From a virus: a stretch of DNA of 38,138 bases. A program made the translations under genes and the position numbers. Shown in pieces: positions 16,961 to 34,233 of this stretch. Position 1 is the first letter of the stretch. The number at the start of each line of letters is the position of its first letter. The stretch lies in IMG/VR virus record IMGVR_UViG_3300027895_000005, positions 1 to 38,138 of that record, one strand, 5' to 3'. The notes beneath the pieces were generated by a model. It saw only the letters and a program-made list of their open reading frames with translations. It was not told the DNA's origin and searched no databases.

Positions 16961-16992
16961 ACCCTCCAGCACGATTAATCGTGCTGGAGGGT
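16961..16992. promoter_or_regulatory. Perfect 32-bp palindrome overlapping the RBS of the 16954 gene
   Basis: accctccagcacgatt|aatcgtgctggagggt is an exact reverse complement of itself. Confidence 0.9.
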
Positions 16993-21120: not shown

Positions 21121-22569
21121 TCAAACCTCCGTCGTTATATCCATCGCGATCGGTGGCGCGATGGGGGCAGGTGGCAGCGAGCCGGGGACGGGGGTCAACG
21201 CCTGGGCGAAGATGTTATTCAAATAGCCGCTGCCGCGGGTATTGTTCGAGTTTGGTAGTTGTGTTCGTGGTGTGGATGGCAAGTAGTTAAGCGGAGCGCC
21301 TACTCCGGTGTTCATATCCATGAGGCTCGGGGCAAACGTATCACCCAGAAAACCCTTGGCCGAAATCAGGTTCTGCATCACCAGTGTGAAGCGAACTTCA
21401 ACGGTCGGCTGATCTTCCGATCCAATCCACTGGGTGAGGGTGATACTTTCTATCGCCAGCAGGTTACCAGACGCCAGCGCAGGCGTTTGAACCTTGATTG
21501 AGAACACCTGCCTGGCGATTTTGTAGAGGTTCTGATTGTTGGCGCCGCTTTGGCCGAGAACGCGGACAACGCAGGAAACCCTGGTGTCGGCGCTACTCAT
21601 GTTGAGCGCCTGATGCGCTATGTTTGCCACCGTTCGCGCCGTGAAAGCTGCGCCGGCGCCTGTCCAGAACGATGCGGCTTCGGCGGCTATGGCTGCGGCT
21701 GTATCGATTCCCCGATGCGCTAACTTCTTGAAGGTGAACACCTCGACCCCTGAATGGACGCTGATCGTCCCCTCGATCTTCTCCACCCCGCTATTAGCGC
21801 CTAAACCGTAGCTCGTTTCTCTGTCAATGCACCTGTACCGATATGTCCGGTTGTCATCCTCCACGGTCCAAGAGGGCCGAATCCGTCGAAAAGAACTGTC
21901 CGACGGAACCAACAACAGGTTGCGGAAGTCGTCCGGAAAAGCTTCCTCTGCAACCAACCCGTCCAGGCGAAACACGGCCGTGCCGTCGATAGTGCGCGTG
22001 GTGAACCCGGCGCTGTCGATGTCAGCCGTCATCGACCAGCGGTTGGAAAGCAGGATCTTCGTGTACGCCGTCGTTGCCAGCTCAACCGAGAAGTTGAGAA
22101 AAATCGTCTTGTCGCCGCGCACCTCGTAACAGCGGCAGCGCCGCACGAACGGCCCACCCATCGCATCGCACGGAAGGAACTGCGTTCCAGCGGCGTCGAT
22201 GCGGTTGGGCGCTTCCAGAACGAGGTCGGGGCCGATCCAGTATTGCACCAGCGGACGGGGGTTGCCAAGCAACTGTGTGATGACGCGAGCGGTGAGTCCA
22301 GAGCGGTCGCCCGGCCCCGTCGCGAAGGTCAGCCCCGCAGGGGGTAGCGCACCCGGGGGCGGAACCACGGCAAGGCTTACGGTCGGCTGGTTGGTCGCCA
22401 TCATCAGAGGGTTGATGATGGCGCGAACCTCGAGCTTTACCCGGTGAAACAGCACCTCCATGCCGGAAGAATCCATCTCCGGCGTCGCCTCCATCGAGAT
22501 GGTTTCCATCTCGTTCGGGCGTATCTCGAATGTCGTGCCGTCCTGTCCGGTAATCACCAGTCTGGCCAT
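21121..22569 (-). CDS. Distal tail/tail-tip-like protein (first gene after the tape-measure position)
   Basis: AGGAG RBS, beta-rich sequence (SNRWS...FTTRTIDG...YRYRCIDRE), and synteny. Confidence 0.7.
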   Translation of the reverse strand: MARLVITGQDGTTFEIRPNEMETISMEATPEMDSSGMEVLFHRVKLEVRAIINPLMMATNQPTVSLAVVPPPGALPPAGLTFATGPGDRSGLTARVITQLLGNPRPLVQYWIGPDLVLEAPNRIDAAGTQFLPCDAMGGPFVRRCRCYEVRGDKTIFLNFSVELATTAYTKILLSNRWSMTADIDSAGFTTRTIDGTAVFRLDGLVAEEAFPDDFRNLLLVPSDSSFRRIRPSWTVEDDNRTYRYRCIDRETSYGLGANSGVEKIEGTISVHSGVEVFTFKKLAHRGIDTAAAIAAEAASFWTGAGAAFTARTVANIAHQALNMSSADTRVSCVVRVLGQSGANNQNLYKIARQVFSIKVQTPALASGNLLAIESITLTQWIGSEDQPTVEVRFTLVMQNLISAKGFLGDTFAPSLMDMNTGVGAPLNYLPSTPRTQLPNSNNTRGSGYLNNIFAQALTPVPGSLPPAPIAPPIAMDITTEV

Positions 22570-22581
22570 CACTTCTCCTGG

Positions 22582-23823
22582 TCAGACGACGGAAGAACCC
22601 CGGGCGCCGCGAATCGACTCGGGAGCGGTTGGGCTCAGTTCTCGCTTCTCGCGATCCTCCTTCGCATACGCCCCCTCGCCGTGCGAGAACTTCTTGCGCA
22701 TCGACGAAGCCGCCCCACCGCCCTTTTCCCCTTCCTTGAGCGTACCCAGAATTTCCTTGAGTACACCTGCCATCTCCTTGAGGAATTCAGTGTCCTCTTC
22801 CGCGCCTTCGTCGCGTTCGACCTGTTCAGCGTCGTCGCGCCCCCTGCCCGGCAACTGCTGATCCGCGGACGGCAACGGCGGTTCGGGCAATTGTGATTCC
22901 CGGCCCCCTGGAAGCTGGAACAACTCTTCCAGGTCGGCACGGTTCAGGTTCAGCCGCTTGCTGTCCCTTGGCGCTACGGACTCTTCCAGGGAGTACGGTT
23001 CGGCCGGTGGTCGCGGCAATGGCTGTGCCGCGTAGTCGAACAGCGAAGGAGGGCGCGGGCCAGCCTCTTCCGCTGGAATCGTACCAAGAGGCAGTTTCGA
23101 CCCGAAGTCGCCGTCGATGCGGGGAATGCCGAAATCGCTCATCCCCTTCACCTTGAACCGCGGCAACTGACTGGCGTCGAACTCTTCCTTTGTCGATCGT
23201 GGCGCCTCGGGAGGGCCGGGCAAGACATCGCTTGCGCTGATCGCGTCCCACCACTTCTTCGGCGGTCCGACGTCAGCCTCGTCCTGTGCGTCTTCCCACT
23301 CCTGTAATCGCTTCTCTTCGGGGGTGGACGGCGGCGCCGGGAGACTCGGGTCGAGCAGCGGAGCGGTCTGGTAGAAGGACGACGGCAGCGGGGGCGGCGA
23401 GACCTTCCCGGCGAAATCCGGGTCAAGGAGCGGCTGGCCGGCCACGTCGCGTTCCAGCATCTCCCACGGGAGCGCTGGCGGTGTTGCCTGGGACGCCGGG
23501 GGCGGCGTGGGCAACTGGTTGGCGGTCCAGTCGGGCATGTCTCGCGACTGTAGGAACCGCAGCGTGCTCTGCTCCACGTTCTGCTGATTGAACCCGCCCC
23601 GCGCGATGTTCTCGAACAACTCAAGGGCTGATTGTAGATGATCGTCGCGCTGCTGCTGGGCAACCCACTGCGTGACCATCCCCTCGCGCACAGCCTTCGC
23701 CACGGCAGCAGGGAGATCCTTGAGGAAGTCCAGACCGCCGGACGCCTGCTGCCGCGCAAGGTTGGCCGCGAGACGGGCATTCATCTCCAGCGCGGCGTTC
23801 AGGTCTTGCGGTGTCTCAGCCAC
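22582..23823 (-). CDS. Protein at the tape-measure position; helical ends with a Pro-rich acidic middle
   Basis: Immediately follows the G/GT chaperone. GTG start overlaps the GT stop, with a GGCGAGGG upstream sequence. Confidence 0.6.
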   Translation of the reverse strand: MAETPQDLNAALEMNARLAANLARQQASGGLDFLKDLPAAVAKAVREGMVTQWVAQQQRDDHLQSALELFENIARGGFNQQNVEQSTLRFLQSRDMPDWTANQLPTPPPASQATPPALPWEMLERDVAGQPLLDPDFAGKVSPPPLPSSFYQTAPLLDPSLPAPPSTPEEKRLQEWEDAQDEADVGPPKKWWDAISASDVLPGPPEAPRSTKEEFDASQLPRFKVKGMSDFGIPRIDGDFGSKLPLGTIPAEEAGPRPPSLFDYAAQPLPRPPAEPYSLEESVAPRDSKRLNLNRADLEELFQLPGGRESQLPEPPLPSADQQLPGRGRDDAEQVERDEGAEEDTEFLKEMAGVLKEILGTLKEGEKGGGAASSMRKKFSHGEGAYAKEDREKRELSPTAPESIRGARGSSVV

Positions 23824-24157
23824 GTTTCGCCCTCGCCGCCGCCCTCTGCTGCTGGCTTGCCCCCAAAATCGCATCCACCTCGGCCGGGTCCTGCGCCACC
23901 GCGTCGGCCCACTCCGGCCCCAGGTCCGCCAGGCTGTGGTAGCTCTGCACGCCCTTGCCGACCGCGACCGACTGTTGCAGGCGCACGCGCGAGATGTGGC
24001 TGACGAGCGAGACGTAGTGGTAGTAGCCGCCGGATGGGGTTGTGCCCGTCAGCCAACCCCAGAGACGAGCAACAAGGGATGCAGGAGCAAGCGACATGGG
24101 GCAGAACCCGTAGGCGGCGCAGAAGTCGGCTAACTCCCGGCCGCTCTCCCGTTTTTT
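23816..24157 (-). CDS. Tail assembly chaperone, -1 frameshift (GT) extension
   Basis: The -1 frame is open from the slippery site (KKRESGRELADFCAAYGF...) to the stop at 23816. Confidence 0.75.
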   Translation of the reverse strand, partial: KKRESGRELADFCAAYGFCPMSLAPASLVARLWGWLTGTTPSGGYYHYVSLVSHISRVRLQQSVAVGKGVQSYHSLADLGPEWADAVAQDPAEVDAILGASQQQRAAARAKRG

Positions 24158-24519
24158 TCCGACCACTCCCACCACTGTTTGAGACAGTACCAGCACTCCG
24201 CGTCGAGCGCCCCTTTACCGTCAGCCGGGTTGAACGCCGGCAGTTTGAACGCCTGGCGGACCACGGCGGCGAGGTTGTCCTGAGCTTCGGCGCGGCGGAG
24301 CTGGTCTATCGCCTCCATCTTCTCCTCTTCCTCGGTCAACTTTCGATCGCCAGGAGGAGGAGGCACGTCGCTCGCATCGCGGCACAGTTGCGACAGGCGT
24401 CCCCCCGACGCCTGTACGAGTCGCCGGCGCAGGGCGAGCGGGTCCTCGTTCACCATCATCTGGCCGTTCCAGAACGTAAATATTTTTCTCTCAGGAGGGG
24501 CAAAGTTGGCGCTGGCCAT
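24130..24519 (-). CDS. Tail assembly chaperone (G-like)
   Basis: 129 aa between the tube and tape-measure positions, ending with GAA AAA AAC near the stop. GAGGA RBS. Confidence 0.8.
   Translation of the reverse strand: MASANFAPPERKIFTFWNGQMMVNEDPLALRRRLVQASGGRLSQLCRDASDVPPPPGDRKLTEEEEKMEAIDQLRRAEAQDNLAAVVRQAFKLPAFNPADGKGALDAECWYCLKQWWEWSEKNGRAAGS
24151..24157 (-). promoter_or_regulatory. Programmed -1 ribosomal frameshift heptamer A AAA AAC
   Basis: TCG GAA AAA AAC GGG in the G frame. A -1 slip joins the downstream ORF. Canonical X XXY YYZ at the canonical position. Confidence 0.85.
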
Positions 24520-24528
24520 GCGTTCCTC

Positions 24529-24708
24529 TTACGTGGGCCTTGGCGATTCAGCGGTGGGGTAGTGACGCCCACGGACGTTGACCACGACCCGATGAAACAG
24601 AAGTTCTGTTTCAGAGTCGTTCATCTCCGGCACGGAGTCTATTGTCATCTCGTCGCACTGGATCTCCAGCGTCTTGCCGTTATGCTTGATGAGAACAAGT
24701 CTGTCCAT
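24529..24708 (-). CDS. 59-aa protein paralogous to the N-terminus of the 21121-22569 tail protein; absent from the ORF track
   Basis: Translated by hand: MDRLVLIKHNGKTLEIQCDEMTIDSVPEMNDSETELLFHRVVVNVRGRHYPTAESPRPT. GAGGA RBS. Confidence 0.8.
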   Translation of the reverse strand: MDRLVLIKHNGKTLEIQCDEMTIDSVPEMNDSETELLFHRVVVNVRGRHYPTAESPRPT

Positions 24709-24717
24709 ACTTTCCTC

Positions 24718-25323
24718 TTACGTTGGCGCCGGCAAGCCGCTGATGGTTGTATCAAACATTTGCCATCTACCATATCCGAAAGCGTTGCTGATCCCGGGGA
24801 TGAACACGCGCAGCGCCTTCCACGAGAGCGACAAGAGTCGCGGCTTCGTGCCGAGCTGTTTCCAGTTGTCCTGATTGATGCGGCAGGCGAAGAACCTTGT
24901 ACCGGCGACCTGCGCGGCGTATGCCGTCTTTGCTTGATACGGAAAGGGGAGTATTAATTGCATACATTCCCCCTCCGTAGTCATCAGTGTGCCGATGTTG
25001 CCGGGATCGTCGATGCCGAGGGTGACTCCGACGGGACAGGCGATGAAAGTCTGGTAGATTGCGTCGTCCCAGCGGGAAAGAGTGGCCGTGATGATCGCTG
25101 TACGTCCCTGGTAGGATTCGTCGGCTTCGACATCGCCGCCCAGATCCACATTAAAGGGGACAAAGCGGTTCTCGTACTGGATGTCAAGGCCCCCCACGGT
25201 CCAGCCAAGGAAGGAGATTAGCGAGGGAGCATTTATCGTGGTTCCGTTCACAAGGGGCTGGCCGGAGACGTAGGAACCCAGGTACAAAGGGACGGCCCCC
25301 GACACATATGGAGAGCTTGACAT
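24718..25323 (-). CDS. Major tail tube protein (putative)
   Basis: 201 aa. LGWTVGGLDIQY...AIITATL...LSLSWKAL pattern, strong GGAGG RBS, and position upstream of the chaperone. Confidence 0.75.
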   Translation of the reverse strand: MSSSPYVSGAVPLYLGSYVSGQPLVNGTTINAPSLISFLGWTVGGLDIQYENRFVPFNVDLGGDVEADESYQGRTAIITATLSRWDDAIYQTFIACPVGVTLGIDDPGNIGTLMTTEGECMQLILPFPYQAKTAYAAQVAGTRFFACRINQDNWKQLGTKPRLLSLSWKALRVFIPGISNAFGYGRWQMFDTTISGLPAPT

Positions 25324-30395: not shown

Positions 30396-31121
30396 CTATC
30401 GCTGACCGTAGAAGCCGCGCACGAGCGACAACGTGTCCGCCGTGGTCGCGTTGGGGTTGAACACAACCAGCGGGTCGCCCGGGTGCAGGCCAGACCACAG
30501 CCCGCCCGTGTCGCTGTACTCGACCCGCGCCGCACTCGCTGGGATCGGGAACGTCGGCTGCAAGGCACCCGTGTTGGGGTCCGTGTAGCCCGTCTGGCCC
30601 ATGAAGTAGAGGATCGATTTGACCGATACGCCGCCCGTCGGCAGCGCAGTGACCGTGATCGCCCCGGCCGTATAAGCGCTCTGCGCCGTATCGAGCACCC
30701 AGGTCCCGTCTGCGGCCTGGTAGACGATGTAGTCGCCGCTCTGGATGGCCGAGTTCCCCGTGCGCGGGGCAGTCGATCCGTCGGCCAGCGGGTAGTTGAA
30801 GTTGGTCGCGTACAACCCTGGGTCGCCATTGATCGAGAGCGACGTGGCCGAAGCCAGAGCGTTGGCCGTGACCTTGACGCGATTGAGCGGCCGGAGAATC
30901 GTCAGAGCGTTGCCGTGGCCGCCAGCGTCCACGATGATGTGGTTGATGTGCGGCACGCCGTTTAGCGCCGGCATCGGGCCAGTGGGAGATCCCGGCAAAG
31001 AGGCTGTTCCCACCATGCCGTAGGGTTGGACGAGGATGGCGATGGCGGTTCCGAAAGCGTGCGTCTGTACGCCGACGCCGTTGAACTTGCCAAGGTCTTG
31101 CACGCCAGAACTTGTTGCCAT
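30396..31121 (-). CDS. Putative head-associated structural protein
   Basis: Gly/Thr/Ala-rich and beta-rich, located between the scaffold and decoration genes. GAGG RBS. Confidence 0.65.
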   Translation of the reverse strand: MATSSGVQDLGKFNGVGVQTHAFGTAIAILVQPYGMVGTASLPGSPTGPMPALNGVPHINHIIVDAGGHGNALTILRPLNRVKVTANALASATSLSINGDPGLYATNFNYPLADGSTAPRTGNSAIQSGDYIVYQAADGTWVLDTAQSAYTAGAITVTALPTGGVSVKSILYFMGQTGYTDPNTGALQPTFPIPASAARVEYSDTGGLWSGLHPGDPLVVFNPNATTADTLSLVRGFYGQR

Positions 31122-33501: not shown

Positions 33502-34233
33502 ATGGCATCATTGCAGGCGGTTGCGCCGGTCAAGGTCACGCTGGAGGGTGGTGATCTGGGAGGAGTGAGAACCTTCACCCTCGCCGGGGCGGACGTGCAG
33601 ATCAATCCACGCTATCGAGACGTGATGGGCGGGAACGGCCTTCCCGTGGATCAGGAATATCGCGGTACGGATCTCGTCATCAGCGGGAGTGTCATCCCCT
33701 CGCAGGAGCAACTTGCCGCCGCCGTTCCCGCCGTCCGTCCGGAGATCGCCCTGGCACAAGCCGTGCTTCGTGCCGACTGGCTGGCGGCGTATGCGCTGCG
33801 GGACCTGCTGGCGGAAGCGCCGCCCGGGGAAGCGGCGTGGATTCCGCAGAAGCCGACGCGAGAATGCCTCTACTGCAAGACGACGGAGCAACTGCGAATA
33901 GGTTCCGATGTGGATGATCAGGCGATGAAGATTCGCTGCGCCCGTTGCCGTAGCGTCCACGCCTCCGCTCCGTTGCATCTGTTCTTGACGGCTGCCAGGG
34001 TGTGGGACAAGGCGGATCGCGCCGTTCGCACCTGGGTATTCAATGAGGCGCCGACGCTGCTCCAGTTGCTGTTTGACATGGGCTTCGCCAGTAACTGGAT
34101 AGCCCTGCTGCCGCCGGGAGTCGCGTGGCCAAGCTGGATGGCAGAAGGGTCGGGCAGCCCGAACGAGAAAGACATTGGCGAGGGATGGCGTGTCGTCCTC
34201 GGCTGGCCTGCCAGAGAGGAGGCCGACGTATGA
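33502..34233 (+). CDS. Mosaic hypothetical protein (tail-tube-like fragment, TIGR02996-like helix pair, Zn finger)
   Basis: GAGGGA RBS, CLYC...CARC, and first gene of the plus-strand cassette. Confidence 0.7.
   Translation: MASLQAVAPVKVTLEGGDLGGVRTFTLAGADVQINPRYRDVMGGNGLPVDQEYRGTDLVISGSVIPSQEQLAAAVPAVRPEIALAQAVLRADWLAAYALRDLLAEAPPGEAAWIPQKPTRECLYCKTTEQLRIGSDVDDQAMKIRCARCRSVHASAPLHLFLTAARVWDKADRAVRTWVFNEAPTLLQLLFDMGFASNWIALLPPGVAWPSWMAEGSGSPNEKDIGEGWRVVLGWPAREEADV

Follow-up and report, generated by a model that had tools for sequence, protein, structure and literature searches.

A siphophage tail requires far more copies of the tube protein than of the products of the genes downstream of it. 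MicroProteins, small single-domain derivatives of larger proteins, titrate the proteins from which they derive, and capsid-protein homologues encoded by satellites, such as Ccm of SaPIbov5, redirect assembly. The fold common to tube proteins, the distal tail protein Dit and Hcp, a beta-sandwich flanked by a helix, is well established (PMC5717097). Dit is represented by SPP1 gp19.1 (2X8K), p2 ORF15 (2WZP), the 80alpha protein (6V8I) and T5 pb9. Concerning the copying of gene fragments, long-distance template switching in E. coli is accompanied by junction microhomologies of 4-15 bp (PMC4888836). The gene described here, ORF59, touches upon each of these systems, being a 59-residue partial paralogue of the N-terminus of a Dit-like protein, set between the tail tube gene and the tail assembly chaperone gene of a phage. 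The parent of ORF59 agrees with the Dit proteins in its position after the tape-measure gene and in its predicted tube-fold N-terminal domain, whereas ORF59 itself has three to four of about eight strands and lacks the helix and the C-terminal domains, forms a separate gene ahead of the chaperone genes and has lost a near-invariant aspartate; because the domain is incomplete, ORF59 is not a Dit. Like a moron it is an extra small gene wedged between two conserved tail genes and missing in the closest relative, but it derives from a resident structural gene, and a duplicated junction links its translation to that of its neighbours. No promoter-like or terminator-like sites were found on the minus strand between 23800 and 25500; with neither element to itself, and with DNA that is not foreign, ORF59 does not count as a moron. 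As with microProteins and Ccm, an oligomerising protein here has a short derivative in its own genome, which could engage the partners of its parent; ORF59, however, covers part of a domain and falls short of a whole interaction domain, and the likeness is one of logic only.

The window, i.e., the whole stretch of DNA that was analysed (38,138 nt), comprises the first 38 kb of a 105,489-b IMG/VR record from an uncultured soil phage (CheckV completeness 81%). Its minus strand carries a siphophage-type tail module with the following features:

24718-25323, minus strand: tail tube (major tail) gene, 201 aa, ending in ..APT-TAA, upstream of the G/GT chaperone pair
24701-24727, minus strand: junction repeat, copy 1, with the last codons of the tube gene, TAA, the GAGGAA ribosome-binding site (RBS) and ATGGACAG, the start of ORF59
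24529-24708, minus strand: ORF59, 59-aa partial paralogue of the Dit N-terminus (parent residues 1-63)
24580-24626, minus strand: predicted mRNA stem-loop within ORF59, 16 bp, the core of which is the perfect palindrome 24593-24613
24512-24538, minus strand: junction repeat, copy 2, with the last codons of ORF59, TAA, the GAGGAA RBS and ATGGCCAG, the start of the chaperone gene
24130-24519, minus strand: tail assembly chaperone G-like gene, 129 aa, with the slippery sequence A_AAA_AAC at 24151-24157 and an overlapping -1 ORF at 23816-24196 (T part)
22582-23874, minus strand: gene in the tape-measure position, 413-430 aa, with synteny kept in relatives
21121-22569, minus strand: Dit-like distal tail protein, 482 aa from the ATG at 22569, parent of ORF59
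22381-22569, minus strand: donor segment, Dit codons 1-63, bounded by ATGGCCAG on the left and CGTAAG on the right (codons 63-65)

The tube gene is followed after 9 nt by ORF59, which in turn is followed after 9 nt by the 129-aa chaperone gene, and all three share a single common reading frame. Translation of 24529-24708 yields the 59-residue peptide that the original prediction had quoted; the ORF is, however, not hidden, as had been supposed, for it figures in public gene calls, and four contigs of 50-200 kb in public assemblies carry the identical protein. A tRNA-Ala (TGC) is predicted by ARAGORN in the head-gene region of the window (30442-30525, minus strand).

Neither Pfam nor PHROGs returned anything usable for the tube, the chaperone, the gene in the tape-measure slot, Dit or most of the other genes, and the labels of the tail genes were therefore tested by other means. 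The names tube and tail-tip protein had started as guesses and are now backed by fold and synteny. The family of Dit-like proteins comprises 960 representatives at E ≤ 1e-3, mostly of 440-490 aa, with 51 at E ≤ 1e-30; a profile search of PDB sequences with this family produced no match, and there is no Pfam family for it either. The AlphaFold2 model of the Dit-like protein, built with 50 homologues, attains a pLDDT of 84.6 and a pTM of 0.74. In a VIA-wide fold search its residues 1-170 matched the 80alpha baseplate protein (6v8i_AC; Z 8.4, rmsd 3.9, 114 aligned residues), lactococcal p2 (2wzp_P; Z 7.7) and SPP1 (2x8k_A; Z 6.6), and furthermore tube initiators, tail tubes and Hcp, the matches spanning Z 8.4-5.5. 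Dit, tube and Hcp structures make up nearly the entire top 50; the individual Z values are middling, and the support comes from the consistency of the list and from synteny. Past the N-terminal domain, another beta-rich region and long helices (residues 281-367) follow in the model. Foldseek found no counterpart of this model in the PDB at E ≤ 1e-3, and in BFVD just unnamed phage proteins along with weak Dit-like rows. The gene in question lies directly downstream of the tape-measure gene in the order tube, G/GT, tape measure, Dit, and the succession of a tape-measure gene (≈ 410-460 aa), a Dit-like gene and a gene for a protein of ≈ 200 aa recurs in the window, L005, L008, L009, L011 and L012. 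In view of the tube-fold N-terminal domain, which is predicted for residues 1-170, and of the synteny, the parent protein is best called Dit-like. As to the 201-aa protein, its nearest neighbours in the ESM Atlas are the tail-tube clusters Phage_TTP_17 and YomU_Tube (TM 0.64-0.72), and it has an orthologue of 67% identity in L005, a 21.7-kb Logan contig which is the only close relative found (58-60% identity for Dit). The slippery A_AAA_AAC sits 20 nt ahead of the stop of the 129-aa gene and, judged by this heptamer and the overlapping -1 ORF, the arrangement is the classic, canonical frameshift layout of G/GT tail chaperones, here in a phage without Pfam-recognisable tail genes.

The original prediction had described ORF59 as a truncated paralogue of the 21121-22569 tail-tip protein, whose gene follows that of the tape measure, and the alignment is indeed significant: BLASTP of ORF59 against the product of 21121-22572 (true start at ATG 22569) gives 22 identities in 50 positions with a 3-residue gap (E 1e-11), and in a tblastn search of the whole 105-kb genome the Dit gene is the sole match (E 1e-9). 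Gapped alignment extends the homology to Dit residue 63 and thus to the entire length of ORF59, with 44-47% identity of the proteins and 38% divergence of the DNA. Two positions that stand out in the Dit family, the near-invariant Asp34 and the conserved Gly37, are replaced. The first hairpin of ORF59 has a 5-residue insertion in common with P0002 and P0006, which P0008 and almost all other members of the family lack, pointing to a Dit gene of the narrow P0002/P0006 clade as the donor. This shared insertion was used in place of a tree of N-termini, which was set aside because MAFFT --auto had misaligned ORF59 (end branch 4.65). A codon tree slightly favours ORF59 as sister to the phage's own Dit, at a non-significant lnL difference of 1.1-2.4 across settings, and the donor could equally have been the Dit gene of a co-infecting close relative rather than the phage's own. 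No family of Pfam or PHROGs fits ORF59, and Rfam has none for its locus; in the ESM Atlas its best score was 0.77, within the noise range, and the best Z of its model in a VIA-wide fold search was 2.5, a value that is meaningless for a hairpin. Word-indexed searches of 5.8 billion sequences, with the peptide and with a 5-sequence N-terminal profile, found no other small homologue, each returning the query alone. The identity and origin of ORF59 can be regarded as well supported.

In L005 the stop of the tube gene and the ATG of the chaperone gene are separated by just 9 nt (TGA-GAGGGAAAT-ATG), in the same stop-RBS-ATG layout and with no ORF in between. Because this nearest relative is devoid of ORF59, the latter is taken as an insertion at the tube/chaperone junction, in line with the original prediction. 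In the more distant relative L009 the junction holds a 137-nt spacer without a homologue of ORF59. The comparison of junctions draws on L005 and L009, the contigs of P0007, P0009, P0011 and P0031 contributing none. A second copy of the N-terminus of their own Dit is absent from all five related loci (5/5), and searches with tube and Dit peptide patterns brought up no relatives in IMG/VR, JGI metagenomes or GTDB genomes. ORF59 is a lineage-specific singleton, present in one genome, with no orthologue found.

The insertion is bracketed by a direct repeat that is longer than had been claimed, the segments 24512-24538 and 24701-24727 being identical in 23 of 27 nt and in all 12 nt of the core ACGTAAGAGGAA. 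Both TAAGAGGAA and the combination of a stop codon with GAGGAA are confined to the two junction sites, in the window as well as in the whole genome, with 0.08 occurrences expected from shuffles. The common end ..PT-TAA-GAGGAA that had been noted for the tube gene and ORF59 is seen in both. In front of ORF59 the GAGGAA, previously put forward as a good RBS, is intact together with the ATG, while the spacer and the wobble positions of the repeat have changed. At the left border, the chaperone and Dit genes start alike with ATGGCCAG (8/8), and ORF59 starts with ATGGACAG and is Dit-like thereafter. At the right border, Dit codons 62-65 (GCCGACCGTAAG) and the end of the tube gene (GCCAACGTAAG) have exactly CGTAAG in common, or 10 of 12 positions if one gap is admitted, and ORF59 ends in GCCCACGTAAG. 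The 27-nt repeat is exactly the interval between the two microhomologies which, as read from the present-day sequence, coincide with both borders of the Dit-derived segment. Two further differences from L005 concern gene starts: those of Dit and chaperone differ in L005 (ATGGCGCG vs. ATGCCGGA), the first 8 nt, ATGGCCAG, being identical here (window positions 22569 and 24519, minus strand), and the N-terminus of the chaperone is longer here, such that its residue 5 aligns with residue 3 in L005.

The simplest reading of this architecture is a double template switch. A nascent strand, during replication or repair, would have continued past the end of the tube gene into the chaperone gene for 8 nt (ATGGCCAG), moved over to Dit, 2.1 kb downstream on the same strand, whose start has the same 8 nt, copied some 63 Dit codons and returned via the second microhomology (CGTAAG / GCCNAC) to the stop region of the tube gene, where the junction would have been copied once more. 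Re-copying of the junction would have duplicated the stop-RBS-start unit, and the fragment would thereby have gained the last codons and the stop of the tube gene, the GAGGAA RBS, an ATG and the frame of its neighbours. Such a double switch would explain why ORF59 starts at Dit's own ATG, why it ends in the Thr-TAA of the tube gene, why its GAGGAA RBS is the same as that of the chaperone gene, and why one frame runs across tube gene, ORF59 and chaperone gene. Evidence of the kind on which template switching is diagnosed is present at each point, namely microhomology at both junctions, a flanking duplication of recipient sequence and the empty site in L005. The event resembles FoSTeS/MMBIR in that the donor is nearby and on the same strand, in that the junctions have microhomologies of 8 and 6 nt, and in that resumption on the original template upstream of the point of departure leads to a short direct repeat. 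It differs in being old, read from one diverged product in a phage genome, and in having made a translatable gene. ORF59 thus represents a further instance of a known process, gene birth by microhomology-mediated partial duplication, with an unusually clean architecture. Its interest lies in being an unusually legible one-step gain of a translatable phage gene, in which the 5' end of a structural gene would have been copied into an intergenic junction, with stop, RBS and start inherited from the duplicated junction itself.

Several lines of evidence bear on whether the fragment is translated and kept. The codon usage of ORF59 corresponds to an LLR of 0.225 per codon, compared to 0.174 ± 0.144 for in-frame and -0.098 ± 0.127 for out-of-frame windows, just 1.8% of the latter reaching the value of ORF59; its GC3 is 0.69, with a genome mean of 0.695. 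Identity to Dit at the three codon positions amounts to 0.68/0.74/0.43 (pN 0.30, pS 0.67), the synonymous sites being near saturation. A four-taxon branch codon model returned an omega of 0.13-0.29 for the ORF59 branch and of 0.04-0.12 for the Dit branches. On all columns omega=1 is rejected (2dlnL 9.9-12.5); restricted to the 50 well-aligned columns, the LRT varies with topology and gives 3.9 (p 0.05) for the best one and otherwise 1.7 (p 0.19). These tests comprise 47-59 paralogous codons from one genome, with saturated dS and branch lengths at bounds. When neutral decay was simulated, the probability of an amino-acid identity of at least 22/47 was 0.05 at a divergence of 0.38 per site and 0.002 at 0.45, and the joint probability of an open frame and the observed identity was 0.008 at 0.38 (i.e., ≤ 0.008); at 0.30 per site the neutral model is not rejected, and an open frame of 59 codons persists in 7-18% of the simulations. 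There is hence moderate evidence, drawn from codon comparisons, that the peptide is translated and under relaxed purifying selection, and we consider it plausible, at somewhat better than even odds, that ORF59 is translated and has been retained by selection. The earlier description of an intact, maintained gene stands as far as codon usage, the RBS and omega (0.13-0.29) are concerned, and its maintenance is supported with moderate strength.

The AF2 model of ORF59, built on an alignment of five N-terminal sequences, has a pLDDT of 82.8 and consists of a beta-meander with strands at residues 3-7, 13-29 and 36-49, mirroring strands 3-8, 14-17, 22-33 and 40-53 of the Dit model. The product is thus predicted to be a short strand plus one long beta-hairpin, i.e., less than half of the tube fold. 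The complete ring domain of that fold is not attained, the 59 residues aligning to residues 1-63 of about 170; with less than half of the fold the whole domain cannot form, and an autonomous domain is unlikely. It may be inferred that the peptide could act only by pairing an edge strand with another subunit of the tube fold. Within the relay from tube to chaperone the fragment would be translated as a 59-residue beta-hairpin peptide and kept under relaxed purifying selection, for which the evidence is moderate, and its most likely action would be strand pairing with tube-fold partners, Dit or the tube protein, during tail-tip assembly or tube initiation. Strand pairing would make ORF59 a small assembly modulator, and the mRNA hairpin acquired along the way may, in addition, adjust the expression of the genes that come after the tube gene. 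To this full account, a partial duplication by template switch that is translated, kept and serves as an assembly modulator, we assign a probability of roughly 0.45. Its last element, a role in tail assembly, is when taken by itself a reasoned guess and rather doubtful. A still bolder version, which we deem unlikely, would see in ORF59 a phage "microprotein": produced as plentifully as the tube protein, this beta-hairpin from the Dit ring domain would pair with subunits of the tube fold and hold back the tube until the tip is ready, or else cap or poison the rings of co-infecting relatives. If true, this would define a new class of tail-assembly regulator, born of a structural gene in a single template switch. 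Should ORF59 be functional, fragments of the tube fold would be seen to act alone in tail assembly or in conflict between phages, and the peptide would be a natural lead for peptides that block tail-tip assembly. A fusion of tube, ORF59 and chaperone through stop read-through was also considered and found unsupported, in-frame 9-nt junctions occurring at other gene pairs both here and in L005.

The same insertion may have left a peptide without function, its frame and RBS being kept for the passage of ribosomes from tube to chaperone gene, or too little time having elapsed for their loss, and this reading carries a substantial minority of the probability. The singleton status of ORF59, its absence from both relatives that cover the junction and the lack of any other small homologue would fit, as would the possession of less than half a fold in which the conserved Asp34 and Gly37 are gone, the marginal LRT on well-aligned columns and the survival of the open frame in 7-18% of neutral simulations; moreover, the perfect 12-nt repeats could delete ORF59 cleanly, which would be in keeping with a loss elsewhere. 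Selection for ribosome passage alone would, however, leave the amino acids unconserved, whereas third codon positions have diverged far beyond the first and second ones, the point estimates of omega lie at 0.13-0.29, codon usage and GC3 are still gene-like in spite of near-saturated synonymous sites, and open frame plus amino-acid identity have a joint probability of 0.008 at 0.38 divergence. That the similarity is due to chance or the locus to an assembly artefact, as one might suspect of a short peptide in a metagenome assembly, has a negligible probability in light of E values of 1e-11 and 1e-9, the same sequence on four public contigs of 50-200 kb and the coincidence of microhomologies with segment borders; copies that differ by 38% in DNA are, for that reason, not a mis-assembled repeat.

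Selection might also act on the RNA instead of the protein. The palindrome at 24593-24613, which had been noticed within the ORF from the outset, is perfect (10+10) and unique in the genome, and it forms the core of the stem-loop 24580-24626 with 16 bp and -20.1 kcal/mol (z -4.05), none of 200 shuffles reaching this stability. No such folding is seen in the homologous stretches of Dit, be it from this phage or from L005 (z -0.8 and -0.7), and the hairpin is therefore regarded as derived in the ORF59 copy, where some six changes from the Dit sequence were needed to build its left arm. A use as a repeated operator was ruled out by this uniqueness, and one as an intrinsic terminator by the lack of a T-run (U-run in the mRNA) after the stem. 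Along these lines, a spacer with a stem-loop ≈ 100 nt past the tube stop could set the ratio of tube to chaperone and tape-measure protein by affecting how the mRNA is processed, by shielding it from 3' decay or by slowing the ribosomes. The strength, novelty and uniqueness of the hairpin speak for this, as does the general knowledge that tube protein outnumbers the products downstream, and the hairpin could modulate expression between the abundant tube and these low-copy products. Selection of the RNA in place of the protein is nevertheless improbable: the hairpin lies inside a translated frame and has no U-tract, the structure of the whole 241-nt region is not unusual (z -1.44) and has no Rfam match, the conservation of amino acids outside the hairpin is left unexplained, and the closest relative L005 does without any spacer. 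Less probable again is a use of ORF59, put forward in the original prediction next to that as an assembly modulator, as a weapon that poisons the assembly of Dit ring or tube in co-infecting relatives, or as a decoy of host sensors for tail proteins. ORF59 would suit either purpose as the diverged descendant of an oligomerising structural domain, placed where it would be produced in quantity together with the tube protein, and the 44% identity to the phage's own Dit could spare its own assembly. Yet that Dit would face the same poison, expression from a late tail operon comes too late for superinfection exclusion, the Pfam-covered flanks have no defence or anti-defence signature, ORF59 itself belongs to no Pfam or PHROG family, and such fragments are not recurrent in other phages.

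Elsewhere in the window, positions 16961-16992 form a perfect 32-bp palindrome, its longest short-loop inverted repeat. The start of the plus-strand gene at 33502-34233 (33502-33820), for which a kinship with the tail tube had been suggested, aligns with the tube protein at a BLASTP E of 0.82, which lends such a paralogy no support. A side result of the analysis is the recognition of a large unannotated family of Dit-like proteins (≈ 960 representative sequences) from uncultured phages, probably with hosts of the Planctomycetota type. A gene on L005 (L005:20108-20938) carries N_methyl and SBP_bac_10 domains (DUF1559-type), typical of Planctomycetota, and gives a hint of a planctomycete host.
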